In this document: positions 3,548 through 48,871 of the stretch, piece after piece
How the letters are laid out: each line of letters opens with the position of its first letter
Numbering within the stretch: the first letter of the stretch is position 1
Assembly: GCA_032718475.1 (NCBI GenBank)
Contig: JAUCBJ010009049.1
Span: 1 to 64,000, forward strand
Length of the DNA: 64,000 nucleotides
Direction of reading: 5' to 3'
Origin: Nemertoderma westbladi
Lineage: Eukaryota > Animalia > Xenacoelomorpha
Program-made: the position numbers and the translations under genes
Notes under the pieces: model-generated
Databases searched by the model: none
What the model was told of the DNA's origin: nothing
Seen by the model: the letters and a program-made list of their open reading frames with translations, nothing else

Positions 3548-3549
3548 CA

Positions 3550-3826: not shown

Positions 3827-3829
3827 CAC

Positions 3830-7410: not shown

Positions 7411-10400
7411 AGGATACCTAAAGTCAAGTGCAAAGTCGATGTTCTGGAGTCTGGACTTGTGACAAAGTAAGCCCCGATAAATAATAGGACTCCAACTCAA
7501 AATCGGTGAAGACTTGATCTGTTTACCTTGGTTGATCGCTGTGAATTCTCGTGCGAAATATCGCAATTGATAATGGCGAATGATATCAACTTCACAATGA
7601 CCATACCCTCGGTATGGTATAGTCTTGTAGGAACGTCAGTTGGGCTTCCCAGTCCCTCCATTGCTCAGCTAACTTTTCTGGGATGGGGTCGTCCCATTCC
7701 AGTCCGGCTTGCCAATTGCTGCGGAGTATGATCCCAGCATGTAGGACTAATGAACTGGACTAATGAAACACAATGGGTCATACAATCGACTCATGGTCGA
7801 TAAGCAAGTCCTCTTAGTGAGAGGTCTAGTCTGGTCGTTGGACCTTACACGTACCCTAAAATTGTCGGTGTTAGGGTCCCAACTAAGTCCTAATACTTTG
7901 GTCGTCAGTAGAGGTTCTAGTTCTAAGTCCAAGTCACCTCCACTGCGATCCGTCGGGTCAAATGAGTTCACCAGTTCGGGTTTGTTGGAAGCGAACTTCG
8001 TCAGGTGAAATCCGCCCTCGTCGAGACAATCCTGGAGTTGGTGTGCTACGGTTGTAGCGCGCTCCAAGGTGTCACAACTCTTGAGGCCGTCATCCACGTA
8101 GAAGTCTCGTTCCACGGTCCAAACTACTTCTGGGTCAAATTGGTCTCGTCTGTCCAATGCGGTCTACTTTAAGGCGTACATGGTGCAGTTGGGGCTGTCC
8201 CTGGCTCCGAAAACTCTTACCTGCATTTGGTAAGTTTCTGGCGGAAGTTCTAAATTTCTGTCCGGATACCAAAGAAACCTCAAGCTGTCCCTGTCCCGCT
8301 CCAAAGCCTTAACCTGGTGAAACATGGCCTCTACGTCACAGGTGAAAGCCACTTTGCATTGTCTAAAACGCATTAGGACTCCCATGAGGTAATTATTCAT
8401 ATTCGGCCCGTCCATCAGTTCGCTGTTCATAGACATCCCTTGGTAAAGCGCGGCGCAGTCGTTGACTACACGCACCTTGCCAGGTTTGTCCGGGTGTCGA
8501 ACAAAATGATGTGGCAGGTAATATGTCTGATCTGTGGTTACCTCGGGATTTAACATCCTAATGGCGTATCCCTTTTGGAGATACGTCTGAAGTTGTGCAT
8601 TGTATTGCATATGGGCCGTCTCGTCTCGCAACAATCGCTGCCTTATTGATTTGAGTCGCCTCAAAGCAAGCGGGTAATTGTTAACGAGCTTAGGTTGTCC
8701 ATTGCGCCACAATATGCCAACCTCGTAGTGGCCATTCGCGGTCTGGCGAATGGTATCTCTCATAATATTTAATGACCGTTTTTCATGTTCTGCCATAGCG
8801 GTCTCGTAACTACCGGGTTCTGCTGAGTCCTGTTCCAACCATTGAATGGTCCGTTCAGTCAGCAGTCAGTCAAGCACTGCTTGCACTGCGCTATGGTCCT
8901 CGTCCACGTCTTCGTCCGCTGCGGTGGCTAGTGTCAATGTGTCTGGTAGGCTCGCAAGCCTTCTGGTGTCACTAGTTGGCGTCGAATCGTTGTATGGCGG
9001 TTTGACAACCTCTTGATCTGTCGGTAGGCTCGCAAGCCTTCCAAGATCAATGACCGGTGTCGAAGCCTGGTGGGTGGGGTCAATGACCTTCGGATTTTTC
9101 GGTAGGCTCGCAAGCCTTCCAAAATCCTCGTTCATCGAGTCATCCACAGCAACAACCCTTTGGTCTTCAGTAGTCAATACAACCTGGTTTACTGCAAGTA
9201 GTTGTTAAGTCAGAGGTCCGTGTGGTCGTGTCCAGATCAGTTATGTCAGTATCGGTGGCGCCTGCGTTAGCAACGCAAGTCTGTCGTAGTGCCGTCTGTA
9301 CAATTGGACCACAGGAGTGTGAAGGAGAATTATCTATCGTGTTAGTCAATAAACTACACGTACTCAAAACGTCGTCCTCCTGGTCACTTACCTCTAGTGA
9401 ACGTATTGGTGCTCTAGTATACCAACCTATGGGAGTTCTACATGCGTAGGGGTTGCCCGCTGTAATAACAGATGGGCGTGTCTCCCATACCTGATGTAAG
9501 TTAAACTGGTCTGTCACAATTAACATCGCGATGGAACGATAATTGACAGGACATTCCAGTATTCCAAGGTGTCGGAAATACTTACGATCTTCCGGTGATT
9601 GCTCTGGCACAGGGCCGAGCAAGTTACTAAAGTCCTTCATAGCTTCAAAGGTCAAATTTCTTACCGGAAGTAATGAGCGCTCCTCCTTGCTGTGTTCTGC
9701 TTTGGAAAGAAGAGTGTCTAAGGTTAGTTTTACTCTCGTCACAGGAATCGCTCTCTTACCATGCATGCTGCTTACAGTATACTGAGCAGTCTTACCTTGA
9801 CTCATGTCAGTAACCACGTCGGCTACTTGTTCGTCGACATAACTATGCGATGACGCAGAGTCTAAGATAGCGTATATACGCTTGCTCCCTCGGGTTCCAG
9901 TAATCTTTATAGGAATCACGCCAAACCCTTTCAATTGGTTCTGTGTGAGGAGTGTTATCAATGGCTGTTCCTCACCCGCATGCACGTAAAATGTGTCGTC
10001 TTCCTCCTTGTCCTCGTCCGATGATTCCGATTGATCCATACAATCCGTGTAGAAAGTACGAATCTCGCGTGACGCACGCTCCTTATAAAGCGCGTCGCAT
10101 CTAGCCGCTTTATCTGGATACTCTCGTCGAAAGCGTTTGGTCGGAGTATGACTCGTCGTGTGGAGTAACGCGTCGTGGTTGCGTCCACACTGAGGACATG
10201 TATCGTTGCTCGGGCAATCCTTCCGGACGTGTCCTGGCTTCATACATCTCCAGCAGGAATCTAACAATCGAATCTGGAGTCTCCTCTCTTCGATTCCTAA
10301 CTCCTTAAAAGCGCGACACCCACAAAGTTTATGTCCGCTATAATTTCTGCCGTTCCGCTTACAGTATGAGCATCCCACAAAGTCCGCCGGCAACTGTTGT

Positions 10401-28010: not shown

Positions 28011-28870
28011 TACTATCTCCCTAATGTCCGTCTCGTTGTCGCTCATTGTTCTTTACTATCTCCCTAATGTCCGTCTCGTTGTTGCTCATCGCTCTTTACT
28101 ATCTCCCTAATGTCCGTCTCGTTGTTGCTCATCGCTCTTTACTATCTCCCTAATGTCCGTCTCATTGTCGCTCATCGCTCTTAACTATCTCCCTAATGTC
28201 CATCTCATTGTCGCTCATCGCTCTTTACTACCTCCCTAATGTCTGTCTCATTCTTGCTCATCGCTCTTTACTATCTCCCTAATGTCCGTCTCGTTGTCGC
28301 CCATTGCTCTTTACTATCTCCCTAATGTCCGTCTTGTTGTCGCTCATCGCTCTTTACTATCTCCCTAATGTCTGTCTCGTTGTCGCTCATCGATCTTTAC
28401 TATCTCCCTTATGTCCGTCTCGTTGTCGCTCATCGCTCTTTACTACCTCCCTAATGTCCGTCTCGTTGTCGCTCATTGCTCTTTACTATCTCCCTAATGT
28501 CTGTCTCGTTGTCGCTCATCGCTCTTTACTACCTCCCTAATGTCCGTCTCGTTGTCGCTCATCGCTCTTTACTACCTCCCTTATGTCCATCATGTTGACG
28601 CTCGTCGCTCTTTACTATCTCCCTAATGTCCGTCTCGTTGTCGCTCATTGCTCTTTACTATCTCCCTTATGTCCATCTCGTTGTCGCTCATCGCTCTTTA
28701 CTATCTCCCTTATGTCCATCTCATTGTCGCTCATCGCTCTTTACTATCTCCCTAATGTCCGTCTCATTGTCGCTCATCGCTCTTTACTATCTCCCTTATG
28801 TCCGTCTCATTGTTGCTCATCGCTCTTTACTATCTCCCTTATGTCCGTCTCATTGTCGCTCATCGCTCTT
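27968..28870. repeat. 43-bp minisatellite, 21 units
   Basis: Unit TACTATCTCCCTAATGTCCGTCTCGTTGTCGCTCATCGCTCTT; 903 bp = 21 x 43. Confidence 0.97.
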
Positions 28871-31254
28871 TGTTGTGTCCCCTACGGTAAGGACTACCCG
28901 ACAGCCTACAAATCTACTAATCAAGCTATAGGATATCTCTAACCGTAGAGTCCAGTAGTATACCGCTTACCAGATCCTAGTAACGATGTATCTTACTATG
29001 AGACTCTAGTAATGAAACGGGCTCGTACAGTATCTGACAACAAATCCCAGTCCAGGATATCTAAACAAACAGACACAATACACAAACTACTACTGGCGAG
29101 GAGCAGAGCCTGGTGTCTATTCTATGTACGCGAGTGGGTCTAATGCCTATGAACTAGACAGAAGGATACCTGTCCTCTAACCGGTATGGCAGATGTACAG
29201 TTACAGTAACAGACCAAACTCACGGGAAAACAATCCCCGCGCAGCGAATCCTAACTATCGCTGACAGTCCTAAATACCGTAACTTGCCGCGGTGTGATTT
29301 ATATGGTTTATATACGAGCTAGGTGGAACACAGCCCTAGCGTAACAATACTGATTACCCTTGTCTGAATCAGCCTAAGAATGGTCGTGCCTAAATGTCGT
29401 GCATAACTGATGCCCTGTACGAAATCAGTCTAAAAGGGTCGTGTCTAACGTACTATACTGCTGGGTAGAAAACAACAGTTTAATAACGAATAATGAAATA
29501 CAGAAAATCCTCCCCTTTTGCCGTAACTAAATATCAGATCCTAATTCTACAAATACAGATAAATTCTGCCTAAATCTAAAGTGCGCTATCTAGTAGGAAC
29601 TCTAAGGGTAAATATGTTTTAGGGCGTGTGTGTGTGGGTGTGTTACAAATAAAACAATTTTGGTGAACGTCGTTTCACTAGGTTTTAGTGATTTCCTGAC
29701 TAAAATAATACCGAGCGCTAGCTACTAAAATAAACTAGTCGCGTTTGTAGAACTTTATACTCACAAAATGACGTCAAAGCTCTTTCCTTCCTATCCACAA
29801 CTCAACTGGGCAACCACGGTGTTAGTAACTACACCCGTGATCGGCACAAATACCAGATTCTGGTTGTAAGATAAGAAATAGGGATTAATTGCTACCGTAA
29901 GTTAGCTGATCTGGTATACAAATTTGATTCTAGAATTTTGTTGCTGCGGTAGTTAGCAGCAAATACCTATCAGTACGTGGCAAGGCGCGGTAGGATATTA
30001 ATAAACCTCCCTAGGCCAAGCGGTGTGCCGGTAGCTGAAATGCTCCTTGCCTGATCAAATAACTAACTCCAGGAGGAAGGGGGGGGGGGGGGTACTAATG
30101 TATGTTCACAAAGCGAACCGGTACCAAACAGTCAGTACTAACAAATCACTAAATTATGGAACGTATGCTGTCCGTACCTAATATGTACTTGCGTACTGAC
30201 GAACGGCAATAGCTCACGTTTGTACCTGTAACGCATATAGGTGTTCCAAGGGTTTGTAGGGCTGACAAGAAAAGGGGGGGGGGGGGTTTCTGCCTGAAAT
30301 ATAATTATTTGATCCTAAATTTTGCGGCGTGCCAGAACGGCATCACGCTCACCCTGATCTATAGGTCTTACGGCGGGCAAGGGCGTCGAACAAAGTCTTA
30401 CCTTCCTCATAAAGCGGGCGCTGCATGGCAAGTCGGAGTATTTCGAAGGGCGAAGGGGGTGTGCGGTCGAACTAATGTGGGCGCTAGCGTGTTGTGGACA
30501 TCCCTTCCCTGCGTTGCTGACGGCCTAACTGTTTAGGCTGAAATCCTCCCGATGTTTGGCTGTCCCGAAGTCGGACCAAAAGAAAACATGTTCAGGAGTT
30601 TGCAGTATATTTACAGTTTAGATTCGAGCAAAGATTATCTAACAGAGTTTCAACAAGAAACCAAAAAGTAATAAAACTAAAAGAGTAACGTTAGGGATAA
30701 AGTATCCAGTCAAGAATGATAGGTGATAACCGAAGGCAAACCAGCCCTTATATACTAAATATCGCACATGGAAACCAAACAGAATTTTTCACAGCTTCAC
30801 AATTGAGCAATGAGACGCTCTGTGCCCTATGATTGGCCCAGCTCATCGTTCAATGTTAACCGGCCCTTACACTAATCTGGGACACGGAATCCTAGCAGAA
30901 ATTTTCATAGCCTCACATTTGAGCAATAAGATAATTTATGGCCTATGATTGGCCTGGCTCATCTTTTGATACGTTGTACGCATCTCATTGGTCCACCAAT
31001 TTGCTCCAAATGAAAATAAATGGCCCCAAAATACAAATTTCCCGACCGGGAATCGAACACGTAACCTATCTGTAATGCAACCAACGCCTTAACCATCTGA
31101 CCACTACGCCACGAGAGTAACTAGGGGCTTTATGTGTACAATATGAATAGGCAATATTACATTACTGTAACTTAATCAAAATGCGTCGGATTTTCGAAAG
31201 TTTTTACGTTAAAGTTAAACTACAAATGCTATCTTATAGTGAAATAATTCATCA
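28871..31254 (-). repeat. Putative family B 3' LTR (~2.4 kb; alternative end at 30589)
   Basis: On the minus strand it starts TGATGA directly after GGAGCGG and ends GGGGACACAACA at a sharp junction with the minisatellite. It has CCAAT boxes (30830-31000) and TATATAAG (30747-30754). The partner LTR is not in the window. Confidence 0.6.
31041..31110 (-). pseudogene. tRNA-like (Pol III A/B-box) cassette inside the family B LTR
   Basis: GGCGTAGTGGTCAGATGGTTAAGGCG...TTGCAT...GTGTTCGATTCCCGGTCGGG has A- and B-boxes at tRNA spacing, but the acceptor and anticodon stems pair poorly. Confidence 0.6.
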
Positions 31255-31289
31255 CCGCTCCATGAAAACAGTAAGTAGGACTGTTTTCA
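31255..31289 (-). promoter_or_regulatory. Hairpin plus short PPT (GGAGCGG) preceding the family B 3' LTR
   Basis: Minus strand TGAAAACAGT-cctactt-ACTGTTTTCA-T-GGAGCGG|TG, the same architecture as the family A PPT. Confidence 0.75.
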
Positions 31290-32116
31290 CCAATCGAAAT
31301 ACGAACTTATTTACAAATATTTCTAAATCTACTGGTAGGGCCTAAAATATAAAATAATCACTATCTAATTATTGCATACTTAATATTGCAGGTATGGCGT
31401 AAATACAATCCATCGTACATACAAAATACAAATTTTACTAATTAACTTTAGTACATAAAATGCTTTCGGTTATCAAGGTAAACAAATGAAACAAATTAGA
31501 TCAAACAAATTAGAACAAACAAACAAATAATTTCAATCTCTTGCAGTAAATCTTTATATTGTAAATATACATAATAAACTTCCACCAAATTAAATCAGTT
31601 CAAATATAAAATAAACATAATGCGCTAATAATTTCCAAATAAGTATTAAAGTGTCCTCCTGACGAGCTGAAAAGTTCGTCCTGCTGGTCTGGATGTCTTC
31701 TCCTGAGCACTAATTGCTAACGGTAGGCTCGCAAGCCTTCCTTCTCTATCTTGCTCCTCCAAACCAACGTCCAAAACATAATGTCCAATATAAATATCCA
31801 AATATAATATCCAAATATAATATCCAAATGAAACATCCGAATATAAATATCCAAATTGGTAGGCTCGCAAGCCTTCCTTCTTCTCTCTTCCTATTCCTTT
31901 GCTGAGTGGGTCGTCCACGTCCTCTAGTGCGACTGGATGGTGGTCGAGGTCGAACTGGGCTTGGACTTCGGCGTCGAGTTGTCGGTGGTTCCAAAATGCT
32001 AGGAAATGGGACGACGGGAGTTTCGCACATCCATCGTACGCTCAATCCTCTAAATCCTCGTCCGATTCCAATCGTCAATTTAACATCGGACGAGTCTCTA
32101 CAACGCTGGGAGGAAG

Positions 32117-35100
32117 TCAAAATGGTGAGACTATTCCGTCCGCTGACACCTCGCTCTCTGACGTCGTTTGAATCCTAAAGGGTTCCGGCAAAGCGTATCC
32201 TGTCCCTCCGCGTGGTTCTCTAGCAAGGGAAACTGTACCCCGAGTCATCCGGATTTGCGATTTTGATGTCATCCTCTCGGCGACATTTACTACCATCTTT
32301 ATCTCTTGTCCGGCCTTTTGGGCTTTGAGTATATGGAATTGCTGATCATCCTGTGGGTGACGTGTCCTCTCCGCTAGTGGTGTGGCCTTGAAGCCAGTCT
32401 CACGCAAAACGTCTGTCTCGTCTAGAATACACGAGGTTACGCGTTTGTGATAAAATGCGCTCCTGTATGCCCAAGCTATCGAATGCCAGGCTCCTTGATT
32501 ACGCTGTTCAACTCGCAATTTGTCGAATTCCCCGGCGGTAATCTTGTTCACCACAGTTTGAAAGTTCCAAGTGTTCTTGTTGTCGGGGTGTACCTGTAGA
32601 AAGTAGTCCCGCACAACCTTAAATCCGCTATCCAGAGGCAATATATCCAGCACCTCCAACAATTCATCATACTGAGGCATAGCCGATACGTATCCTTTGT
32701 TTGACATTATGAGAGGGTTTACGGCCCAAAATCCCAAATGTGCTCTCATAGGAAAACGGCGTCGCTGTGTAGATACATGCTCGTCTGCTAGATCCTCCCA
32801 ATGGTCGAATAGCTGTCGAACGATTTTAACTGACATGTGCTCATAGGAAACATCTCTAAGTTGACATTCAGATGCCCTATGGCCCTTAATATTACAAAAC
32901 GTGCACTGCGCCACGAAACGCCAGCAAGTGTAGAAAGTGTGCGAACGTTGATCCCCACACCAGTTACATACCAACTCCGGTAGAGATATGTGCTTCGCTC
33001 TGCATTTCTTTGCGTGGTGGCCAGTTGCCCCGCATCTGCCGCAAATAGTGTTGGCAGGGTACCAAACTTGCTCATAGATGAGATCTCCGATGGGACGAGC
33101 GCTACCGTCCACGTGATAATTCTCATCCTTCACCGAGACATAACGGATGTCGCTTTAGGGTTCTAGATACTATGTCGGCGATGAAACAAACGTTGACCGA
33201 AGATTCTATCGCTAAGTAGTATTGCAAGATTATCTGTGGAGGTGAAGTAATCGCCCAATACATGCAAACTCGCCACTTTAACTGTGACTCGAACTCGTTT
33301 ACGCCGGGGGTATCTCCCTCTCCATATACGTCTGTGTACTTGCTCCTCCTACTCTCCTTATAATCCCAACTGAACATTAGATATGAGATATAACCCGTCC
33401 CAGTTTTTAGCGTGTTATACTCCCTAAAGTATCCTTGCTCAATAGCCCAAAGCAACAATGGTCTATTATCCACGTATGGCGTAGACAGTTGATCCTCTTC
33501 CGTGGGCATTCCCGCGAAATCGCTAATAAGGTCATCCCGTACACCGGATCCGATCTTGACGATGCTCTTGTCCAACACAACGTCTCGCACGGCCTTTGGC
33601 AACATCCTAGCTTCTATGCTACAAGCCAGGTCCATGGATTTAACTATCCGTTTTATCATCGCGTGTCTTTGCGTCGTTCCTTCCGGCATAGGCATCTTTC
33701 TATCGCTCCTCTGTCGGCTGAAGACATGTAACACGCCGTCTGGTGCTCTAATCTGTATAGTTTTCGAAGTGAGGCTTTGCTGATGGCTTCCTCCTTCATT
33801 GTCGTAAAACATATAACCATTCTCCTTTAGAGATTGGCTGGTCACGTCCCAATCGTCGAGTAAATCGTCGATAGGGTTCCAAATTCTTCCAATTGACTTT
33901 TCGTCATCGAAGCTAATGGGTTTACCGGTCCAATTGGTCGCGATATCGGTGTCGGTCTCAAATGTTCCAACTCCGATCCATAATCGAATCGTTCTAGTCA
34001 GATATCCTCGTAAGATGCAAGGTGCGATATCCGTCCCCGCGCGATCCACTTCCTTAAAGTCCGTAATGTGTGGAGGCACGTTGCGTACGATTTTTTGGAC
34101 TATTATTTTATGCAACTCGGTTGACTCTAGCACATCACCGAAGGTAACCGATGGGAGGAAATCCAGGTTCGAGATGATCTCCGGGTGTTCAACTATGGGA
34201 ATCTCGTAAGTTGTCTCCTTCCGGGTCGGTACACTAATAGGAAAGCTAGTCGGTCTCGCAACTGGTACTATCGTTCCAGCAGAATGGGATTGAGGTTCTC
34301 GCGTTATCTCGACATGAGGTATCTGTAGTCTCTGCGACAAACGCTGAGCAAAGGTGATACTATCGAAGAGCTCGGGTGTCATCTCCTTGGGTTCGGTTTG
34401 ATCGTGGGATATCCAATAGAATGGTAGGCTCGCGAGCCTTCCGCCGAACTCCTCGATCTCGCCTTTCTCGTACGCCTTGTACGCCCTGTAGAGGCTCAAA
34501 GCTTCCCGTTTCTCTCTTGTCGACTTATTAGACTCGTCCACTACCATGCTGTAGACATCTGGTTCGACTAATCTAGGTTCGTTAATAACGATCTCACCCG
34601 CGTTCGGTCCACTCATTTTAAACGAATCGTACGGATTCGTCAAAGGGTATCCGCCTTCTTGGTAACGCAGACTTTGGTGGTATGAGCATCGCGCTAATAT
34701 CGGCTCGGGGTTCTCTGAGTTCAATCTCATAGGAATTGCGTTATCTTGCTCGCGCATACATGCTCCACATTTGTAAAACAGTTTGTATATGGAAAACGCG
34801 TCCTTTGTCTCTGGATCTGCTCCTCGAGCGCGTCTATAAAGATGCATTCCTTCGAATTCATCCCTGGCTGCAGGTAAGGGTTCATCTACCGTCAAATATT
34901 GCAGCGTATGATATAATCGGCGTATTTTGGTGTCTGGATCCTCGCAAATGTCGCTAGCGTCGCATAACGCATCGTAGGGATATAACGCATTGAACTCAGC
35001 GCGTATCTCTTCCGTTCTTTTGTTATATGCGTCCAACCGCTGTCGCGTAACATTCGGGTCCGCCTTGGATTTAGCGAACTTGGCTGTACTTCTGGCCATA

Positions 35101-35216
35101 CTCTCCACTCCAAACACACTAAAGTTTTTAGCTCCATATCGATTGAATGGCGCCTGGTGCTCTTGTTCTTGCGTAAACCCTTGATGTAACTCCTTATTCA
35201 TCTTCTCCGCCATCAT
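32117..35216 (-). CDS. B2 accessory ORF3 (frameshifted at ~33125): CxxC..CxxH module, DEDDy-like exonuclease, three zinc knuckles
   Basis: 33123-35216 gives CGAC..CSYH, MFYDNEG, LPKAVRDVVLDKSIVKIGSGVRDDL, YVDNR and YLAIE. 32117-33133 gives CGRCGATGHHAKKC, CNWCGDQRSHTFYTC and CTFCNIKGHRASEC. Aligns by eye with A2 ORF3. Confidence 0.8.
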
Positions 35217-35946
35217 ATACGCGTATATATGGTTACGTTGTTACGTTGCTACTAGATGAAACACAAAATAGAGGTTAGATGTGAGGTGACTTAGAATTTG
35301 TCGGCTTTTGGCTCAACTTTGCTCTAAACCCCAACCCATTTGCCTAATGACTTCGGGTTTGCGTGATTTCGCACTGGCTCCTAATCCAAAAAATTGTGCC
35401 GATAAAAAATGAATTCCGGGTAAACTAGCCGCGAGTCTAAAATACTCACCTTCAATTTCCCAAACTACATTCTTAAAGAAATAATGCAGTCGAGAATTAT
35501 TTGGTCTAAATAATAGTAGACACGACTACGTAGAACAAGGCCGATTTTCTTTTTCCAAAAGAAATTTATCGGTAGGCTCGCAAGCCTTCCATCCGCTCTT
35601 GTCCTCCCTAATTTTAATTTTTATCTAGCTGTAGTCTAGAATTCGTATTCACTGGAGAATCATTTTTCTTAAATTTAAATCCAACTAAATGGATTTGTCT
35701 AATAATTTTTGAAAAATTGTCTCTCTTGTAGGTTCCAAGTGGAATTCCATTCCTACTGTACACACAATCCCGCTCCTATGTGATACATAAGGGTACTACC
35801 CTCCATGTTCACGTATAAAGACAATGGAATTCCACCGCTGTCTCTATCTACAGTGAAGAGGATTACAAATGCACATACAGTAATACAAAATACTAAATGA
35901 CTAAAATACGGTAAGGCTATGTGGCGGCCATCAAGGGTCCCACATC

Positions 35947-38595
35947 TTATTTACTAATATTGGGTGGAGATTTGTAGTCTCCTGTCTCGTTTCTAGTCTC
36001 CTCAAGGAGTACGAGATGTTGTACAGGCCTATCTACAGTACGTCCGTCGATAGTCCGTACAGTAACTGTCCTTATTACACCAGATGTAGGGTGTGTGGTC
36101 AAAATGACTCCGGTCAGCCAAAACCGTCTTTTCAGATTGGCTTCAGCCAATAAAACATGGTCACCACGTCTCAAACATCGGGTATTATGATACCAATTTG
36201 TTCTGGACGAAATAGAGGGCAAATAATGTTTCTGCCATATTTCCCAGAATTTATTTGCAAGCAATTGAGTGATTTTCCAAGCTTTGTTGCCATATCCGTC
36301 GCTATTAACGGGTACCGAAATGGGCAACAATGTCGTCGGCGCCTGCATAAGCAGGTGCGCTGGTGTCAAGGCAAACTGTACATCGTTATTGTCTGGGATC
36401 AAAGCGATCGGTCTAGTATTTAAAGTCGCTTCGATTTCTATTAGTAACGTCGTCAGTTGGTCGTCTGTCAATATGTGTTGCGTCGGGATTACTTTAGCCA
36501 TAGCTGTTTTAATTGAGCCAATCAGCCTTTCCCAAACTCCGCCTCTCCACGGACTGTCTGGGGTATTAAAATTCCAAACAATACGGTGAGGACGTAGTTC
36601 CTCGGAAATCAGGTTTTGGTCCAACTTCCTTAAAGCTCTGGTTATTTCGTTCCGTGCACCCACAAAGTTTGTCCCTTGGTCGCAATAAATGGATTTGACC
36701 AATCCACGTCTAGCGATAAATCGCCGTAAGGCTAGGATAAAGGCATTGGTGGTCAGATCTATCACATGCTCTATATGGACAGCTCTGCTGGCCATGCAAG
36801 TGAAGATCAATCCCCAACGTTTTACCTGTACCCTTCCGCGTTTCGCGATTATGGGTCCAAAACAGTCTATCCCTGTCTCAGTGAAAGGGGGTCTAAACGC
36901 CTGTAATCTCGATAATGGTAGTTCACTCATTTCTTGGTGTCCTATCCGCGCGTGCACCTTCTTACAAATCATACAGTTCCGTGTTACCGAACTTAGTGCC
37001 TTGCTAGGCCTAATCAGTACAAACCTCGATCGTAAATGTGACAGACAGTGGTGTCTACCCACGTGTTTGAGTTGTACATGTGCGTCCAGTATCATAGCGT
37101 GCTGTAATTCATGGTGTTGCGGTATGATGATAGGATACCTAAAGTCAAGTGCAAAGTCGATGTTCTGGAGTCTGAACTTGTGACAAAGTAAGCCCCGATA
37201 AATAATCGGACTCCAACTCAAAATCGGTGAAGACTTGATCTGTTTACCTTGTTTGATCACTGTGAATTCTCGTGCGAAATATCGCAATTGATAATGGCGA
37301 ATGATATCAACTTCACAATGATCAACTTCCTCTAAGGTAAGTCTTCTAGGAAAGTCGCGTTTGCCTCTGGCATATTGTCTCAAACGTTTGAGCCATGCTA
37401 ACTTGCGGCACGCATCAGTCCATGATCTAGTTAGGTTTACTATCCGGTCAACGTGAGTGTTAGTGACGTCATCAGGTAAGGTATAGTTGTAATGTGGATA
37501 CTTGTCTGGACTTGGTAGGCCCACGGGCCTTCCGGTAGGTTTGTCTGAGTCCCCAAGTATGTCAATCTCCACGGTCTTACCTTTACCGTCCGCTCCTAGT
37601 GTGTCGACTGGCAGTAACGGTTTCAACTCTACAGTGTTAGTGTGTTCCTGTGAGCCTGTAAGCTTTCTAACCTTAGCCACACATTTACCTGTAGGTGGTA
37701 AGTTAAGTACTTTCTTTGAGCGAAGTGTAATTGCTGTGGCTACACCTTTGTCGTCCAAAGAAGTCAAATTCGGTAAATTTCTAAAAGTCCGCTCCAGTGG
37801 GTCCTTTAATGGAGTGTCTAGTAGACAGTCTGGCGAAATGTCCGGTGAACAGTCTGGTGAGACGTCTGGTGAGACATAGCGCGGAACATCCGGCGAAATG
37901 TCCTGTTGTCGGTCCCAAAAGGTGTCTGGCGTAATTTCTGTCAGAAAGTCTGGTCTAAAGTCTGGTGGACAGTCTGTCGAGATGTCTGGTGGAAAGTCTG
38001 GTGAGACGTCCGGTAGACAATCTGTCGAGAGTTCCATAAAACAATCTGGCGAGCAATCCGGAGAACAATCTAGTATTGCTTCTGGTGAATAATCTGGCGA
38101 GTAATCTGGTGAACAATCTGGCGAAATGTCTGGTGAAATCTCCTGCGGAACATCCGGTGAAAGATTCGTACAAGCGTCTGGTCGAGATTCTGGTGAGACG
38201 TCTGGCGTAATGTCAGGTCTAGCGTCCAGGTCATCAGATTTCGTCCGTCCTTGTTTCCTCTTGACCTTGGCGTTGGCTTTCGCTTTAGATTTGACAACCT
38301 TGTCGATTTTTATCTCGGCACCCTCTGGTATGGTATTGGTTGTCGCGTCAAATAACGGTGGCCATTCGTCTGATGGTCGCTGTAGGAAATCGGGTCCTTG
38401 AAACCAAAAGGATTTATTGTCCGGTTTACAAAAGTCAAGCTGTTGCATCCCCCGTGACGCGATGTCAGCTGGGTTCAGCTTCCCTGGACAGTGACGCCAA
38501 TCTTGTTTGAGCGACAAGTCTAGGATTTCAGCCCGTCTGTTGGCTACGAAAGTCTTGAACTCAAACGTCTCGTTGTTTATGTACCAAAGTACCAA
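35947..38595 (-). CDS. B2 pol C-terminal segment: RNase H end, SPD-repeat spacer, integrase
   Basis: NPADIASRG; HHCC zinc finger (H..LKH..CMIC); GIDCFGP, CDQGTNF, WRGGVWERL (DDE); C-terminal LRRGDHV..RPVQHLV. Confidence 0.95.
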   Translation of the reverse strand: MVLWYINNETFEFKTFVANRRAEILDLSLKQDWRHCPGKLNPADIASRGMQQLDFCKPDNKSFWFQGPDFLQRPSDEWPPLFDATTNTIPEGAEIKIDKVVKSKAKANAKVKRKQGRTKSDDLDARPDITPDVSPESRPDACTNLSPDVPQEISPDISPDCSPDYSPDYSPEAILDCSPDCSPDCFMELSTDCLPDVSPDFPPDISTDCPPDFRPDFLTEITPDTFWDRQQDISPDVPRYVSPDVSPDCSPDISPDCLLDTPLKDPLERTFRNLPNLTSLDDKGVATAITLRSKKVLNLPPTGKCVAKVRKLTGSQEHTNTVELKPLLPVDTLGADGKGKTVEIDILGDSDKPTGRPVGLPSPDKYPHYNYTLPDDVTNTHVDRIVNLTRSWTDACRKLAWLKRLRQYARGKRDFPRRLTLEEVDHCEVDIIRHYQLRYFAREFTVIKQGKQIKSSPILSWSPIIYRGLLCHKFRLQNIDFALDFRYPIIIPQHHELQHAMILDAHVQLKHVGRHHCLSHLRSRFVLIRPSKALSSVTRNCMICKKVHARIGHQEMSELPLSRLQAFRPPFTETGIDCFGPIIAKRGRVQVKRWGLIFTCMASRAVHIEHVIDLTTNAFILALRRFIARRGLVKSIYCDQGTNFVGARNEITRALRKLDQNLISEELRPHRIVWNFNTPDSPWRGGVWERLIGSIKTAMAKVIPTQHILTDDQLTTLLIEIEATLNTRPIALIPDNNDVQFALTPAHLLMQAPTTLLPISVPVNSDGYGNKAWKITQLLANKFWEIWQKHYLPSISSRTNWYHNTRCLRRGDHVLLAEANLKRRFWLTGVILTTHPTSGVIRTVTVRTIDGRTVDRPVQHLVLLEETRNETGDYKSPPNISK
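37815..38215 (-). repeat. In-frame 12-bp repeat encoding (x-S/P-P-D)n
   Basis: TCTGGNGAnnnn period on the + strand; the protein reads ISPDISPDCSPDYSPDYSPE... Confidence 0.9.
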
Positions 38596-41500
38596 CGTCG
38601 CGTCCGTCCTTCAAGTTAGCCTCCAGCTCGCGTTGAACTAGACTGACAATATCGGTGGATATCGTCCCGGCTTGCAGCTCTCCACGAGGTACAGTCATAT
38701 ACTTCAACGGCATTGTTGTAGCCTTTGAAGTAACGAGAGATACATTGTAGCTGTCCGATGTCACTTGTCGTCTAAGGTATAATGTAACCCCCAATCCATC
38801 CTTGCTAGCGTCACTAAAGCTGTGAAGCTCTAAATCGACAGGAAAGGTGGTCTGCAAAGGAAAATATACCCTTGGTATGGTATAGGCAAGTAGGAACGTC
38901 AGTTGGGCTTCCCAGTCCCTCCATCGCCCAGCTAACTTTTCTGGGATGGGATCGTCCCATTCCAGTCCGGCTTGCCAAATGCTGCGGAGTATAATCCTAG
39001 CATGTAGGATCACTGGACTAATGAAACACAACGGGTCGTACAATCGTCTCATGGTCGATAAGCAAGTCATCTTAGTGAGAGGTCTAGTCGGGTCGTTGGA
39101 CCTTACACGTACCCTAAAATTGTCGGTGTTAGAGTCCCAACTAAGTCCTAATACTTTAGTCGTCGGTAGAGGTTCTATGTCTAAGTCTAGGTCCCTTCCG
39201 CTGCGATCTGTTGGGTCGAATGAGTTTACCAGTTCGGGTTCGTTGGAAGCAAACTTTGTCAGGTGGAATCTGCCCTCAGCGAGACAATCCTGGAGTTGGT
39301 GTGCTACGGCGTAGCGCGCTCCAAGGTGTCACAACTCTTGAGGCCGTTATCCACGTAGAAATCTCGTTCCACGGTCCGAACTACTTCTGGGTCAAATTGG
39401 TCTCGTCTGTCTAATGCGGTCTGCTTTAAGGCATACATGGTGCAGTTGGGGCTGTCCCTGGCTCCGAAAACTCTTACCTGCATTTGGTAAGTTTCTGGCG
39501 GAAGTTCCAAATTTCCATCCGGATACCAAAGAAACCTCAAGCTGTCCCTGTCCCACTCCAAAGACTTAACCTGGTGAAACATGGCCTCTACGTCACAGGT
39601 GAAAGCCACTTTGCGTTGTCTAAAACGCATTAGGACTCCCATGAGGTAATTATTCATATTCGGCCCATCCATCAGTTCGCTGTTCATAGACATCCCTTGG
39701 TAAAGCGCGGCGCAGTCGTTGACTACACGCACCTTGCCAGGTTTGTCCGGGTGTCGAACAAAATGATGTGGCAGGTAATATGTCTGATCTGTGGTTACCT
39801 CGGGATTTAACATCCTAATGGCGTATCCATTTTGGAGATACGTCTGAAGTTGTGCATTGTATTGCATATGGGCCGTCTCGTCTCGCAACAATCACTGCCG
39901 TATTGATTTGAGTTGCCTCAAAGCAAGCGGGTAATTGTTAACGAGCTTAGGTTGTCCATTGCGCCACAACATACCAACCTCGTAGTGGCCATTCACGGTC
40001 TGGCGAATGGTATCTCTCATAATATTTAATGACCGTTTTTCCTGTTCTGACATAGCGGTCTCGTAACTACCGGGTTCTGCTGAGTCCTGTTCCAACCATT
40101 GAATGGTCCATTCAGTCAGCAGTCGGTCAAGCGCTGCTTGCACTGCGCCATGGTCCTCGTCCACGTCTTCGTCCGCTGCGGTGGCTAGTGTCAATGTGTC
40201 TGGTAGGCTCACAAGCCTTCCGGTGTCACTAGTCGGCGTCGAATCGTCATGCGGCGGTTTGATACCCTCTTGATCTGTCGGTAGGCTCGCAAGCCTTCCT
40301 AGATCAACGACCGGTGTCGAAGCCTGGTGGGTGGGGTCAATGACCTTTGGATTTTTCGGTAGGCTTGCAAGCCTTCCAAAATCCTCGTTCATCGAGTCAT
40401 CGACAGCAACAACCCTTTGGTCTTTGGCAGTCAATACAACCTGGTTTACTGCAAGTAGTTGTAAGTCAGAGGTCCGCGTGGTCGTTTCCAGATCAGTTAC
40501 GTCAGTATCGGTGGCGTCTGCGTTAGCGACGCAAGTCCGTCGTAGTCCCGTCTGTACAATTGGACCACAGGAGTGTGAAGGAGAATTATCTATCGTGTTA
40601 GTCAGTAAACTACACGTACTCAAAACGTCGTCCTCCTGGTCACTTACCTCTAGTGAACGTATTGGTGCTCTAGTATACCAACCTATGGGAGTTCTACATG
40701 CATAGGGGTTGCCCGCTGTAATAACAGATGGGCGTGTCTCCCATACCTGATGTAAGTTAAACTGGTCTGTCCCGATTAACATTGCAATTGAACGATAATT
40801 GACAGGACATTCCGGTATTCCAAGGTGTCGGAAATACTTACGATCTTCCGGTGATTGCTCTGGCACAGGGCCGAGCAAGTTACTAAAGTCCTTCGTAGTT
40901 GCAAAGGTCAAATTTCTTACCGGAAGTAATGAGCACTCCTCCTTGCTGTGTTCCGCTTTGGAAAGAAGAGTGTCTAAGGTTAGTTTTACTCTAGTCACTG
41001 GAATCGCTCTCTTACCATGCATGCTGCTTACAGTATACTGAGCAGTCTTACCTTGACTCATGTCCGTAACCACGTCGGCTACTTGTTCGTCGACATAGCT
41101 ATGCGATGACGCAGAGTCTAAGATAGCGTATATACGCTTGCTCCCTCGGGTTCCGGTAATCTTTATAGGAATCACGCTAAACCCTTTCAATTGGTTCTGA
41201 GTGAGGAGTGTTATCGATGGCTGTTCCTCACCTGCATGCACGTAAAATGTGTCGTCTTCCTCCTCGTCCTCGTCCGATGATCCCGATTGATCCATACAGT
41301 CCGTATAAAACGTACGGATCTCGCGCGGCGCACGCTCCTTATATAGCGCGTCGCATCTAGCCGCTTTATCTGGATACTCTCGTCGAAAGAGTTTGGTCGG
41401 AGTATGACTCGTCGTGTGGAGTAACGCGTCGTGGTTGCGTCCACACTGAGGACATGTATTGTCGCTCGGGCAATCCTTCCGGACGTGTCCTGGCTTCATA

Positions 41501-44500
41501 CATCTCCAGCAAGAATCTAACGATCGAATTTGGAGTCTCCTCTCTTCGATTCCTAACTCTCTAAAAGCGCGACACCCACGAAGTTTGTGTCCGCTATAGT
41601 TTCTGCCGTTCCGCTTGCAGTACGAGCATCCCACAAAGTCCGCTGGCAACTGTTGTCGTGGCTGTGTGGTGCCGATAGGCGTCAGAACTTTAGAAGTCTC
41701 AGTAGTGGTGGCGTAGGTAACGGCTTTCGCGTTCGTCGGAAATGGTTTGGTTCGAGTCGGCGCTGAAATAGCTATCCCTTCCGCCGCGATATGGTGATCA
41801 GTATAGTTCGATCGAGTCTCGATCACGGCCTCCCGTGAAATCAGTTGGTAGACGTCGGTGAGTTTTAATAGCCCGCCGGCTTCTTCACGCTGGTACTCGA
41901 TGCGTCGCCATTCTCGTCGGAGTCTATGGTGAAGTCGACCGATTATCCTAATGAGAACCGTCGGTGCGTTAGCGTATTCGAGTTGTCCTATGGACCGTAA
42001 AGTCCCTATAGCGTTTTTGATTTTGTCCGTGAGTCGTAGAAGGTCGATCGGTTTCGAAATATTGCCTCCTCTGCAGAGGTCTTCTATAATGGATTTAGCC
42101 ATGGCTACGTTACCGCCGTAAATCGAATACAAACGGTCGTACGCCAACTCAAAGGCATCTGGAACACCAATAAAGGTTTCCGCTAATCGTTTCGGCTCAC
42201 CAGACAGGACTTGGAGCAAGTAATTAAACTTCTCCGTCGAGGTGAAAGCACACTTAGCGATCTGGGACTCGACATAGTCTACCAGTGTACGCCAGTGTTT
42301 TGCGTTGCCAGAGAACTTCGGCGGTTGCTGTGCCGGTAATCCGTGTCTAGCCGCGAATTTCGCAATCTCGCTAACCAAATCCAACTGTCCGCGTCCCTGT
42401 TTGGTGGCGTCGTCCAGTCGTTCCCTTCCGTCGGTAGGAATTATTAACGGGATCTTCTTCTCGATGGGTCGGAGTCTGTCTAGTCTCCTGTTCTCTCCTC
42501 GGTGGTCGATGTTGTCTAGGTTGTTCCAATTCCACGCTGGTTCGTGATCGATCCGACGGTTGCGCTTCGAGTCGTTCCTCGGGTTGAGCTAGTCTATCTG
42601 TCATCTCGGTGAATTGTTTGGCGCTGATCGTTTCCGCTGGTCGCAATGTGGGTTTCCAAATGGGTGTTTCTCGTGGTGGGTTGTCGACGAATTGATTTGT
42701 CGATCGTTCCTCTCGTTTGTAATCTGTCGCCGCTGCTGCCGCTCCAGTACGGAATACTTCCCGTTCCGTCGACTCTGAGTCACTGGATGAGTCGCTGTCG
42801 TCCGGATAAGGTGGTTGGCGGATTCGCGTCCGGCATATTATTCTCGAGCGCGTTCGTTGCGTTCCGGGATCCACGGTTCTCCGACGTTCGGTAGGCTCAC
42901 AAGCATTCCACGAAGTCGTAGGTCTTGTCAAACATGGTTCGATCCTGTGAGTACTACCCACATCCGTCCTTCTCCGTTGTTTGGTAGGCTCACAAGCTTT
43001 CCACGAAGTCGTAGGTCGCGTCGAACTCTGTGTCAATGGTTGAGTAAAGTGGTCAGGTTTCGTAGTCGGTCTATAAATAACTGGGTTCGCGCAGCACGTC
43101 ACAGGTTTAACTGCTAACGGCTTACTTACCTGTTTAATTGACATAAATGCAGGTTCCTCCCTTCCTACAAGTAGACTACGACTTACTGTAGGTGGACTAG
43201 TTATGTTACCTGCTAAAATTGGCAATGAAGTTGCCCTAGGTTGCGGTATTTCTGTCACAACAAACCTGTTACCTTGCGTCGAGCGCACAGGCGTTATTTC
43301 TTTAAGTTTTGTGACAAAGACTGGTTTTATTCTAGTCGTGGGTTTGAGCATAGGGATAACTTGTGGAAAACGTTTACAATAATCCTCTACGAACTCCTCT
43401 CCTCTATCTATCGCTCCCACACTTCCTTCCTCAAGACGCTTCTGAATTCCGCAATATCGAGCTTCCAAACGATTCAGAGCAGACAAGTCGTGTCCGGCTC
43501 GGGATCTTACAGATCTATCTCTCGCGTCGAGTTCGAGGTCCTCTTGCGCGTTCGCTGCCTCATGCGATCTACGATTAAATTCGAACTGTAGCTGCATTTC
43601 CCTTTTGCGTCGATCCGCTACTTGTTGTTGTGCTGCTAGTTCTGCTTCCTGTATGGCTAAACGTGATTTTAATTGACGTGCCTCCAACTGAGCACGTGCG
43701 TCAGATGTCGCCTTCTGCCGTGCTAACTCGTCAGCTGCTGCAACTCGTGTTAACTCGTCAGTTGCTACCCGTCGTGCTAACTCGTCGGTAGCTGCCGCCG
43801 CGGCTGCTTCTCGCGCTAAGTCTTCCTCCAATCTTCGCATCTCCGAAGCCTCAAATTCGGCTTACGCTTTGAGTTGCGCAATTCTCGCCTTGTCTTCTCT
43901 ACGTTGTCTCTCTCCCTCGATAGCGATCGGTGTCATCTGTTGTTGCGCTTCTTCCTCGGCGACTTGTTGTCGGCGTGCGACTTCCTGTTGTTGTGAGTAA
44001 TTACGGATGCTGTTCTACTAACGTCGCCAACGTCGCTCCGCATGCTAACGAACAATCTATCCATGGGTGGAATATGGTAGGCTCACAAGCCTTCCGTAGT
44101 GAGAACTTCCGTCGTCCCTTGCGGTTCGACTTCCGGTTCTTTGATCGGTACGCCGCATCTACGAAGAAAATTGGTGAGCATCCCTAACCTCCCGTCCAGG
44201 CAGTATAGTTCTTCTTCCTCCTCGGGTTGTAACAACGCGTCCGAAACTGACTCACCTAGCATTTGGTCGAGCTGCTCCTGTTGAGCCAATCTTATTACTG
44301 ACTTAAACTGAATAATACTTTCTCTCGCACTCACTAACTTATCTATTATCTTTACCTGGGTCAAGTTGTCGCCACGCAACTCTGCGAGTTCGTGTAAACC
44401 TCTAAGTTTATCTACGGAAACATGTACCCTACTTTCTATCCTTACTTGTAAGGTGTAGAACTCGTATCTCGACATCGGGGCGGTTAACTCGCGTAAAATG

Positions 44501-44820
44501 CGAAAACCTTCTCCGAGGTTTCGAGTAATCTGGGCCATGTGTCCTCCTATACTTCTAATAACGTTCTCCTGGCTTCCAGTCGAACTTACCATGTCTGGTT
44601 CCCGCGATCTAGTCTGCGGGACGGTAAGGAAATCTTCGATTCTGCCATTGCCACGCATTGCGGCTTCCGGTATTTCCGTTCGGGGTACCGGTGACGCAAG
44701 CGGTGTGACATCGGTGGAATCTCGGGTTCTCCTTCTAGGTTCGTCTACTGTCGATCTGTCCGGGTCGCACGAGTCATAGTCGGTAGGGGGGTATCGCTTC
44801 GAATGTGGTGTGTCACTCAT
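38561..44820 (-). pseudogene. B2 gag-protease-RT-RNase H, broken by frameshifts and stops
   Basis: ORFs 44083-44820, 42371-43840, 39892-42384, 39304-39891 and 38561-39070. Motifs PPKFSGN..W, EKFNYL, three Gag knuckles, ILDSAS, YVDN (YVDD in B1) and FSDAS. Confidence 0.95.
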
Positions 44821-45410
44821 GTCTTATTATATATGTCAAGTACGGGTAATAAAATGTCAAAATGTCGAAATGTCCAAATGTCAAACTTACCTTGATATAT
44901 ATATGTCATATATATACCCTAACCGGTACAAATAAATCAACGAAATATATAATAAAATAAGTAATAATCTAGCCTACCGGCTAAATTTGTACGAATAAGT
45001 GAGATAATGGTATACGTTGCCAAAATGTAGATCAACAAGTACAAATAGTAGGCAAAACAGCAACATCTAACGGGAAAAATATGTACCAACAACACTACTA
45101 ATCAGACAGTGAAACCCACAAATTTTGAGTACTACTGTGCTTTCTAATTTTGAAATAATACGAGTCATAAAACCTACGCTCCTTTGATCCTCCAGTCGTA
45201 CAAATTCCCAAATACAAACCGGACGTGGGTCGTTCCGTTTTCGGCGGCGCGGACAAATTTTGTGTATCCCAAACATTGCGAAAAGCTGTCTGATCTTCGA
45301 AGCGGTCCAGAAATGAGTCCTTGAGTGCTGAAAAGTCGAAGGTGAGAGTTTTACTTCTACTCTACGAAAAATCTTCCTAGGTACCGATACAAATTGGTCA
45401 TTAAACCCTA

Positions 45411-46380
45411 TATAAAAGCTTTTGCGGAATTGCCCGGTTATTTTCCTTATTTTTTTCGTAAAATACTCTGTAGTTGGTTTAGTAGGCGTAAGAGGCCGTA
45501 TTATTGCTGTATCGGTGTTTTTTAGAGGACCTAAGAGCTATTTCTTCCGTATTGTGTACTTTGGAAGACATGGTTGGTGATTCTATGGCAATTCTGTGAC
45601 GCAAAATGGCTAGATACTCTTGAACAGTAGTTACTATGACGACGGTTAACAGCTGATATGCATACGTGTCGATTTTCTTTGTTCTACGGTGCCTCTTGGT
45701 TCAGTCAACCAATCAGAGCGTTTTTACTGCTCTTGTAGAGAAATTTCCTAGAAATCACGCAATGCATTATGGGCAATGTTTACATTCTGTCCTAAGCCAT
45801 GAAAGAACGGCTTTTGGAATATTTGTGCTTTTCTGCTTTTAGCCTAACACTAGTAGGCTTAATTATAAGGACATATATCCGTTATCGACTGGCAATACAC
45901 ACTGGTATCACTGGACTCAACCTGCATATATCTTATCGTACATACTTTTATATTGTTATACTGCTATTTACTGTCGGTTCTTCATTATATGGTTGATGAA
46001 ATATTATATTGAAATAACGAGAAATAATCCCAAAACCCCAATATTCTTGATATACCGAAGGTAAGAGAGACCGGTTACATATAACGATTGCAATTTATGT
46101 TAAAGTGGTTTGAAGTGAATCTAATGTTATTTGATAGACCCTACATGAGTCGGTCTGTGTTCCTTTTATATGTGACTAAAATCAGTGAAGATCGGCAGAT
46201 TAGTGTGCAGTATTGTGCAGCATTGTGTATGAGTGAGACTGATAACGAAGCATTTCCTAAAGAATGCGCCATATATGTGAATTATAACTAAGCCATATCG
46301 TTGCGTGTAGTTTAAGTCATAACTCTGTTTATATAGATAAAGCGCCACGTCCTAAAAGAACTGTTAATATTCCCCGAAGG
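45411..46380 (+). repeat. A2 5' LTR (minimum extent; the true end lies further downstream)
   Basis: Matches 63033-64000 with about 10 substitutions and 2 indels by manual count. Confidence 0.95.
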
Positions 46381-48871
46381 TGAATAATATTGTCAGAGAT
46401 TATATAATACGATCAGTCGAATAATACAGTAGGCTTACATAGCAATAAGATTAAGCCGTCAAACTCAATCTCCCGGGTATATCCAGCGGGTGAATGATCG
46501 CGCACGGTTTGGTTTCGACTAGTGTAGTGAATCAGATACTTGTCAGAGGCTAAAAGCGATTTATTATCTAGAAGACATCCTAATTTGGCGGGTTAAACTG
46601 CCAAAGGTATTAAAAGCGCGAACAATAATGGATATATAGCTTCTTTATTGCAGTAAGCAATAAAGTTGAAAGTACCGGTCGACTGGTAAATCTGAACCGG
46701 TACTGCTGTAGGTCTGTAGGCCCAACTGCCGGAACCGGTACTGCTGTAGGTCTGTAGGCCCAACTGCCTGAACCGGTACTGCTGTATAAGTACATTAGTA
46801 TTATTCGATTTGATTGTTATACCGGTAGGTCTTAGTACTTAATCGGGGAACGGCCGCCCTGGTTTTTTATTGAGATTTTACTTATTTCTGTCAGTTTTAT
46901 TTATTTGTAGGCCAATATTGAGCAGAAGGCGTGTAAGCCTGTTCAGATTGTACAGAGAATTTGTAGGCTGAGCTGTTGTCTGACTGTTGTTAAGTCTGAA
47001 AGACTGTAGTGTGTGTAGAGCGTATGTCCGAAAGAGTGCCAGTTAGTAAGTAGGGGCTTCCAGTGTTGTGAGGTAAACCCCCTCTTAAAGAATAAGTCGT
47101 ACTACTCGGTTAGCGCACATACTAACTAACCATTTTGGAGTCTGCATATACTGTGGTTTATTTAGGCTTGATAGTAGGCTGACAGCGTTTGGTCTGTACT
47201 TTGTTTGTGTAGTCTGTACGGGTAGCGTAATATCCTTATTTAGATAATCTGTAGGCTGAATTGTTGCCTAGCTGTTATTAGGTCTGAGGGATTGCGTTGT
47301 GTGTAGAGTGTATGTCCAATAAAGTGCCAGTTAGTAAGTAGGGGCTTCCAGTGTTGTGAGGTAAACCCCCTCTTAAAGAATAAGTCGTACTACTCGGTTA
47401 GCGCGCATACTAACTAACCATTTTGGAGTCTGTACATACCGTAGTTGTTTAGGCTTTATAGTAGTCTGTCAGCATTTAGTCTGCATTTTGTTTGAGTAGT
47501 TTGTACGCGTTGCTTAATATTTATTATTCAGAGTTATGCGATTATTCGCAACATTCATGTCCCCAAGTTTATTCCTACAGTAATTGTGCTTGTTATACAT
47601 ACCGCTATAGTTAAACTAACCCCAGTACTACATCAGGGCTGCTCGGCGTAGGTAAAGACTGGAGATTTTGTGCTTTGGTCACTCCGGCAGATACCGTGGT
47701 TCTTTTAGCTGTTCAAGTATTTTTAACTGCTGGTTATCTGTTTTATAAGTACTTGTACCTAATTTAGGGTTTAGTGTACAGTGCTTTCCGAAAGTAATTA
47801 GTGTGTAGGCAGTATATTTGTGTTGTAAAGTGGTTAATAGGCACGTTGGTTCTGGTAGACCGCTGTAATTAATCTCTAGGTAGGGACACTCCGTGATACA
47901 TAACGTAGTACCTATAGCGCTACGGGTATAGGTCGTCAGACGGTGGTATTTTCCTATCTGGACAGCGCAGTATATTTACTATTACTTATTATTTTCACAT
48001 ACCGTAGTATCCTGTCCGTTGTAATAACCAGAAATTCTAACCTTCTGTTAGACTGGTTTGTAGTTCCCTGTAAAATTACCCTAAAATTTCGTACGTAATA
48101 TTTTGTTGTGTTTAATTAGAGATTAAATCTCACCCGTGTCTTATCATAAGTAATTTGTAGATAAGTAACTTAGGAAGTAGAATTATTTGTTTTAGTGTCC
48201 TATAAGTAACACTTCACTGAAAGCGCACCGCTTTGTGTAGTGATTACTTCCCGGAAATAATAACATCTATTTCAATATTGTAACAAAACCCTCATACGGA
48301 TATATATATATATATTATAAAATAAAATCAATTAAATCTATTTATAAATAGTAGGCCTATTATACAACCTTTAGGTCTTAAAATCAGTTGGACTACTGCT
48401 CAAGTAACGGTAATAAAGTAAGTAAAGTAACCAAGTAACCCTAAAATTCAGGAATTCAATTATTTAAAATAATTGACATACCGGTATTTACAATAGGCTT
48501 ATTATATTTATTTCTATAAATTTAGGCTGAAATCATACCGGTATTCTGTAATTAATATAGGCCATAATTATACCTATATATACTATAAGTGTAGGCTGTA
48601 TACCGGTATTCCAGATAGGCCTATTATATACTTATATATATTTGTGCTGAAACTACATACCAGTATTCTGTAACAAATCTAGTCTGTAATAATACTTATA
48701 TATACTATAAGTGTATACCGGTATTCTACTATATTGCGTGTACATATACAGCTACACTGAGTAGCAGTATAGGTAATTGATTACTAGGATAGCAGTGATA
48801 CTGAATTACTAGACTTGCTTTAACTTTATTTATAGCAGTAGGTATTCAACTGTATAACTGTATAAACTGAA

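Follow-up and report, generated by a model that had tools for sequence, protein, structure and literature searches.

Retroviral and Ty1 signals for RNA selection and dimerization, which are among the closest described counterparts of the motif reported here, sit near the 5′ end of the genome. RSV NC's N-terminal zinc knuckle is described as binding a UGCG tetraloop (PMC8833184; PMC5035970; PMC7599994), and HIV-1 NC as contacting G2 and G4 of GGAG and GGUG tetraloops (PMC7599994). Each of these stem-loops, RSV micro-Psi SL-C and HIV-1 SL2/SL3, is one site in a folded 5′ leader. Other hairpins, including the HIV-1 DIS, MoMuLV DIS-1/2 and the GACG stem-loops SL-C and SL-D, and Ty1 PAL1/PAL2, are described as convertible to an extended intermolecular duplex and as present at a single site or at two, close to the 5′ end; the MoMuLV GACG tetraloops are said to kiss through their last C-G. 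Dispersed packaging signals have been described for single-stranded RNA (ssRNA) viruses and HBV. According to that account, MS2, STNV, and HBV pregenomic RNA carry many stem-loops along the coding strand, which share a loop on variable stems and bind with graded affinity (PMC6281560). At the DNA level, the VANC21 targets of the Arabidopsis DNA transposon VANDAL21 are reported as family-specific 9-bp motifs without dyad symmetry, gathered in tandem repeats, mainly noncoding, and in a single orientation (PMC5735166).

The motif of the present study, a 20-nt dyad in a retrotransposon family that we call B, shares something with each of these systems. Like RSV SL-C and HIV-1 SL2/SL3, it is predicted to form a short stem-loop with G at loop positions 2 and 4 and UGCG as its commonest loop, in an element that encodes its own CCHC knuckles; unlike them, it occurs as eleven near-identical, free-standing copies from gag to the 3′ untranslated region. 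Its predicted stem-loops are strewn along the coding strand like the packaging signals described for MS2, STNV, and HBV (PMC6281560), but the 20-mer is nearly invariant and self-complementary. As in the DIS and PAL elements, the hairpin is computed to be convertible to an extended duplex, and UGCG also ends in the C-G described for the MoMuLV kissing loops; in contrast to the one or two sites described there, pairing is predicted here between any two of the eleven copies. Finally, family specificity, gathering in tandem repeats, and single orientation recall the VANC21 targets as reported (PMC5735166), whereas the motif here is a longer dyad, lies mostly in coding sequence, and belongs to an LTR retrotransposon. 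Among the open-licence papers listed by our searches, we found no report of a dispersed or repeated stem-loop layout in such retrotransposons, and no account of how BEL/Pao elements select and dimerize their own RNA.

The family B element and its repeated motif

Two retrotransposon families, A and B, lie in the 64-kb stretch of DNA that we analyzed (the window), and on sequence grounds both are BEL/Pao (Belpaoviridae) LTR retrotransposons. Pfam matches to DUF1759 gag, Peptidase_A17, and DUF5641 integrase (E = 1e-9, 3e-36, and 7e-19) follow the order gag-PR-RT-RH-IN, so that the domain content and order of family B are those of BEL/Pao elements. The copy B2 (visible span 28872..45410, minus strand) is broken by stops and frameshifts. 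It runs from about 45410, where the family A insertion A2 cuts its 5′ part, to about 28872, where its 3′ end (...CA) adjoins a 43-bp satellite; the 5′ end leaves the window, and for the start of the 3′ LTR a polypurine run suggests, as a guess, a place near 30540. A candidate PPT is also present. On the same strand, the gag-to-protease region (39892..44823) extends over several frames and contains DUF1759, zinc knuckles, and a protease-like region. It is followed by pol (35947..39891), with RT, RNase H (Peptidase_A17), and integrase (Integrase_H2C2 and DUF5641), again interrupted by stops and frameshifts. ORF3 (32117..35240, minus strand, two frames) combines an N-terminal Cys/His domain, a lead to a DEDDy-like 3′-5′ exonuclease (PF01612, feature score 0.93), and three CCHC knuckles. 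Family B is very abundant: every bin of 27500-45500 is covered by thousands of contigs, which come from three DNA runs on two samples, and a close relative is present in the sequencing run of a second organism. No RNA run with the element was listed among the sequencing runs, a result that bears in neither direction on its expression.

The best integrase match reached 40% and gag had one match at 22%, so close protein relatives of family B were not found, and the linker with the GRLASLP repeat had no match at E up to 1 among proteins of 98 to 314 amino acids. ORF3 is homologous between families A and B (28% over 267 amino acids, E = 8e-26; 34% over 103 amino acids, E = 2e-10) and had no match among 1.84 billion protein representatives. 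For its C-terminal part, a single-sequence AlphaFold model gave a pLDDT of 33 and a PDB sequence search gave no match. LTR elements of rotifers are known to carry exonuclease ORF3s, and with its exonuclease-like extra ORF family B resembles the bdelloid elements Juno and Vesta, which are described as LTR elements with a DEDDy ORF3 (PMC5408684).

The motif has the form GG(A/T)AGGCT-N4-AGCCT(A/T)CC. Searching the window at up to three mismatches returned 15 rows, comprising 10 of the 11 B2 copies, three copies in a second fragment, B1, and two reverse-strand self-matches of the dyad; the chance expectation was 0.00 over 100 shuffles of the window. A scan at up to six mismatches added the remaining B2 copy, at 37514 (4 mismatches), and all 14 starts listed in the initial annotation were thereby recovered. 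The copies all lie on the minus strand. In gag they occupy the N-terminal region (44076..44095, in a gag frame with an internal stop in the broken copy), a low-complexity region within a 93-bp tandem unit (42983..43002), and 42890..42909. Three more sit in the PR-RT linker (40358..40377, in a 78-bp unit; 40280..40299; and 40202..40221), to which the three B1 copies at 8945, 9023, and 9101 (8945..9120) are orthologous. The others are found in the linker before integrase (37514..37533), the noncoding pol-ORF3 spacer (35571..35590), the ORF3 linker between the N-terminal and exonuclease-like domains (34423..34442), and the 3′ untranslated region (31858..31877, after a purine-rich run, and 31722..31741).

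These 11 copies make up seven independent clusters 1.1 to 2.7 kb apart. Three groups are tandem duplications with periods of 78, 93, and 136 bp, and the identity of their flanks shows, at the level of sequence, that they arose by local duplication; single copies may have reached distant sites by template switching during reverse transcription, which is the obvious route. Eight copies are coding, in three frames (GRLASLP, WKACEPT, or EGL*, as had been proposed), and are confined to linkers or low-complexity regions, and three (35571, 31858, and 31722) are noncoding. Orientation is identical in all 14 copies, again as first described, and the seven clusters share it as well (7/7, P = 0.016). The visible 5′ leader of B2 (44830-45410) contains no motif copy, the remaining leader being outside the window. 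We rejected a role as PPT or PBS: roughly 1.2 kb separates the 3′ copies from the LTR start as guessed, and the motif matches no tRNA.

Conservation is sharply bounded. Among seven cluster representatives, identity was 0.90 in the motif versus 0.23 in the 15-nt flanks, and between neighboring 78-bp units the motif was identical at 20/20 positions versus 31/58 for the spacer (Fisher P = 6e-5). This is so despite a central CpG, a site class that mutates about fivefold faster in the host (B1 and B2 diverge by 15.0% at CpG sites versus 3.0% elsewhere). Because the motif is read in three frames and also stands in noncoding DNA, yet is about 90% identical against 23% in its flanks, conservation is at the nucleic-acid level, as initially claimed; the same three frames and noncoding copies rule out a constraint on the peptide. 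On this sequence evidence, we conclude that the motif is conserved for its own sake and is under selection. Its peptide readings were absent from all 120 integrase homologs scanned, most of which do not span those linkers.

Three departures from the common form, at 42905, 40211, and 40366, are private to B2; at these sites the common form is kept by nearly all other copies in the genome (for 42905, judged from the 40 differences listed of 1,617 against genomic contigs). The three PR-RT copies keep the common form in other genomic copies and in a contig of the second organism. The initial annotation had noted one stem mismatch in each of two gag copies and several variants that preserve symmetry. 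Both mismatches, at 42890 and 42983, are present in B2, but the former is private decay of that copy; since it is confined to B2, as are the loop variants at 40202 and 40358, none of these gives evidence of symmetry-keeping evolution, and what stands is a single compensated stem pair, in 37514. Across 40170-40410, six sites are polymorphic among other genomic copies and none of the six falls within the 60 motif bases, a depletion that is not significant (P = 0.18).

Within the 64-kb window, the motif is confined to family B, in agreement with the earlier claim. Outside the family, the scan at up to six mismatches surfaced only 55750 and 56986, each with at least 6 mismatches. Family A lacks the motif, and at up to five mismatches it occurred in 0 of 31 other BEL loci (scanned at positions 2001-16000 where longer than 16 kb; several are short fragments), which sets family B apart from family A and these loci. 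Nor did family A yield an analogous dispersed motif, a possibility that had been raised at the outset: its best candidates formed 4 to 5 clusters of mixed orientation versus 4 in one shuffled control. The two best repeat families in the other BEL loci (L002 and L032) were discarded as analogs, being located outside the element or in nonelement DNA. Viral contigs had 0 matches to the motif and 0 to the integrase. The one exact match among JGI metagenome contigs (L001) was attributed to chance, as that contig is bacterial-looking and has no other likeness to the window. Outside family B, the window is enriched in one half-site hexamer, GTAGGC, including in the family A LTR and leader, whereas neither the full dyad nor the other half-site, GAAGGC, is enriched there; the matches listed in a literature search on host-enriched short words held nothing relevant.

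Predicted folding and pairing of the motif RNA

The predicted fold of the sense-strand motif is a stem of 2 + 5 bp around an A·A mismatch, closed by a four-base YGYG loop that is mostly UGCG. The hairpin probability is 0.90 to 0.96 for 8 of the 11 B2 copies in local context (60-nt flanks), although the isolated hairpin is computed to be equally stable on the antisense strand. The computed pairing between copies differs between the strands. The predicted duplex of two UGCG copies has an energy of −30.7 kcal/mol versus 2 × −7.6 (−15.2) kcal/mol for two hairpins, and the corresponding antisense-strand duplex is computed at −22.9 kcal/mol. On the sense strand alone, G·U is computed to let every YGYG center pair with every other one, and neighboring copies are predicted to pair with each other when folded jointly. 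Rfam and ARAGORN returned no match in the window.

Covariation, which had been put forward as support, reduces to one compensated pair in one copy and two lower-stem pairs common to two tandem units. Specifically, a double change affects one of the seven core pairs, in one sequence (37514). The flanks of 40358 and 40280 are each predicted to extend the hairpin by a 6-bp lower stem, with two compensated pairs between these tandem units. Over 14 rows, 48.8% of lower-stem cells are paired, and flank pairing over the 11 copies is marginal (Fisher P = 0.039, with copies that are not independent). The loop has a pattern of its own: positions 1 and 3 vary between C and U only, and both G's are fixed except for one B2-private change. 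A purine follows the motif on its 3′ side in 11/11 copies (P ~ 0.013 for seven clusters), and in 37514 four transitions in the central six bases leave both loop G's intact and give a compensated closing pair (1 in 15 by chance), but the RNA-side statistics (orientation, loop, 3′ purine, 37514, and lower stems) are each weak and some are post hoc.

Candidate readers and roles

Taken together, the motif probably acts as an RNA signal of some kind. The initial annotation called it a distributed cis-signal, and the distribution and family specificity in that description hold. As to its nature, the best single reading is an RNA stem-loop bound by Gag knuckles; by analogy with retroviruses, we tentatively favor, at somewhat below an even chance, a distributed Gag-binding and pairing signal borne by the genomic RNA of the element. 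In this scheme, every copy would fold into the short stem with its A·A mismatch and YGYG loop, the zinc knuckles of the element's Gag would dock on the loop, and the copies could also pair with one another. The eleven sites, one every 1 to 2.7 kb, would thereby help to select, dimerize, and compact an unusually long RNA for packaging; these roles in binding, dimerization, and packaging are ones that we infer from the analogy. The loop positions contacted by HIV-1 NC, 2 and 4, are those of the fixed G's in the motif. Invariant stems, which a protein that reads the loop does not need, are needed for copy-to-copy pairing, which argues for docking and pairing combined. The candidate reader lies in the B2 gag-to-protease region, where one canonical CCHC was found by pattern (residue 360 of the 39892-ORF; Pfam E = 0.0046, below the cutoff), flanked by two Cys/His clusters recognized by eye; BEL Gag is described as having three knuckles (bioRxiv 10.64898/2026.03.22.711591).

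Several observations count against this Gag-docking reading. In RSV, altering the UGCG loop is reported to have abolished binding by NC, while the selectivity of Gag in vitro was not reduced (PMC5035970), which argues against a simple transfer of the RSV model. Four copies lie downstream of pol, so that any ORF3 transcript would share them; family A and the 31 other BEL loci manage without the motif; and no copy is present in the visible 5′ leader, the site of retroviral and Ty1 packaging signals. Known dispersed packaging signals are described as sharing a loop on stems that vary (PMC6281560), whereas the stems here are invariant in sequence and would equally fit a DNA site. A stronger version of docking and pairing, which we regard as unlikely, is an RNA zipper in which eleven interchangeable, self-complementary 20-mers would join two 16-kb genomes along their length, or fold a single one, at many points, while offering G-rich loops to Gag. 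The copies would then be held identical so that any could pair with any other through G·U-tolerant centers, and distributed dimerization and packaging would replace the single 5′ signal.

The invariant stem sequence also suits a site in double-stranded DNA, the most durable alternative but still a doubtful one. Here a dimeric protein, from the host or in the form of the ORF3 N-terminal domain, would bind the dyad at many points and keep the long integrated element transcribed or unsilenced, in the manner of VANC proteins on VANDAL transposons. Single orientation does not serve as an argument against DNA, because the VANC21 DNA motifs are reported to be one-orientation too, as well as family-specific and tandem-gathered like the motif here (PMC5735166). 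The excess divergence at CpG sites between B1 and B2 points to a host that methylates these elements, and the window, with the family A LTR and leader among the places concerned, is enriched in one of the half-site hexamers. The other half-site is not enriched outside family B, VANC motifs are short, without dyad symmetry, and mainly noncoding while 8/11 copies here are coding, and a free spacer of 4 to 6 bp would be expected to drift, yet YGYG has been kept with a strand bias. Furthermore, lower-stem compensation has no DNA rationale, and family A lacks the motif despite its homologous ORF3. That last point also weakens the ORF3 knuckles, which had been suggested as a reader.

The RNA-level evidence fits equally well a hairpin with a role other than packaging, such as nuclear export, localization, a stability tag, or a self-tag shielding the RNA from the element's own ORF3 exonuclease, a reading that we consider quite improbable. 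Any subgenomic RNA would bear copies too, since these reach over ORF3 and the 3′ region, and ORF3 has both an exonuclease lead and three knuckles; against this, the same ORF3 architecture exists in family A without the motif, no Rfam family matches the window, and the loop equals a known NC-knuckle ligand. Least probable is that the motif has no present function. Template switching and tandem duplication would then have spread a short palindrome, and recent copying or conversion would have kept its copies alike. Reverse transcriptase is known to pause and switch at palindromes, three groups are tandem (78, 93, and 136 bp), and coding copies occur only in linkers and low-complexity regions, but inverted copies are absent and the edges are sharp, with flanks down to 23% identity (31/58 within tandem units) against 90 to 100% in a motif whose central CpG mutates fast.

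Meaning for BEL/Pao elements

The layout in family B contrasts with that of retroviruses and Ty1, whose selection and dimerization signals are placed near the 5′ end. The invariant 20-mer offers a short substrate for simple binding tests that would set RNA against DNA and Gag against host proteins. If the motif is an RNA signal, dispersed-signal assembly would extend from ssRNA viruses and HBV to very long LTR retrotransposons. If it is instead a DNA site, the VANC anti-silencing targets would have a counterpart in an animal retrotransposon. Either outcome would be new for the BEL/Pao group.

Short words enriched in the window, and BEL/Pao contigs from other records

The hexamer GTAGGC, which makes up one half-site of the 20-nt dyad motif of family B, was enriched in the window and strand biased, with 48 occurrences on the forward strand versus 9 on the reverse strand, 14 being copies of the motif itself. 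Most occurrences fell in the LTR and leader of family A, the other BEL/Pao family in the window, and GTAGGC-rich stretches were located at 11302-14281, 45482-48591, and 63104-63473. The word TACCGGT was enriched as well.

BEL/Pao integrases were encoded on 31 contigs (L002-L032) from prokaryote genome records. These contigs are probably animal host DNA that was binned into prokaryote genomes. One of them, L002, carried a GC-rich palindromic repeat array (3604-4820), which lay among clustered zinc-finger genes and not in the contig's BEL element.

Features in and beside the broken family B copy

Both families encode an extra open reading frame, ORF3 (family B, 32117-35240, reverse strand; family A, 58880-62599, forward strand), and each version contained a Cys/His N-terminal domain, a candidate DEDDy-like exonuclease domain, and CCHC knuckles. 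Among 1.84 billion representatives searched, we found zero relatives of the family B ORF3.

In the 3' region of family B, a segment at about 31040-31110 (reverse strand) resembles a tRNA, contains words similar to the A and B boxes, and is possibly a SINE head; neither ARAGORN nor Rfam made a call there. Elsewhere in B2, the broken family B copy, the linker preceding the integrase contained a 12-nt tandem repeat (37805-38186) encoding (S/P)PD-rich units. A 43-bp satellite with 21 copies (27967-28871) directly adjoined the 3' end of B2.

Nesting of family A in family B

Both family A copies in the window (2/2) sit within family B copies: A1 was inserted at 10910 in gag of the fragment B1, and A2 at about 45411 in the leader of B2. 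This arrangement could reflect targeting, or it could be merely a nested cluster.
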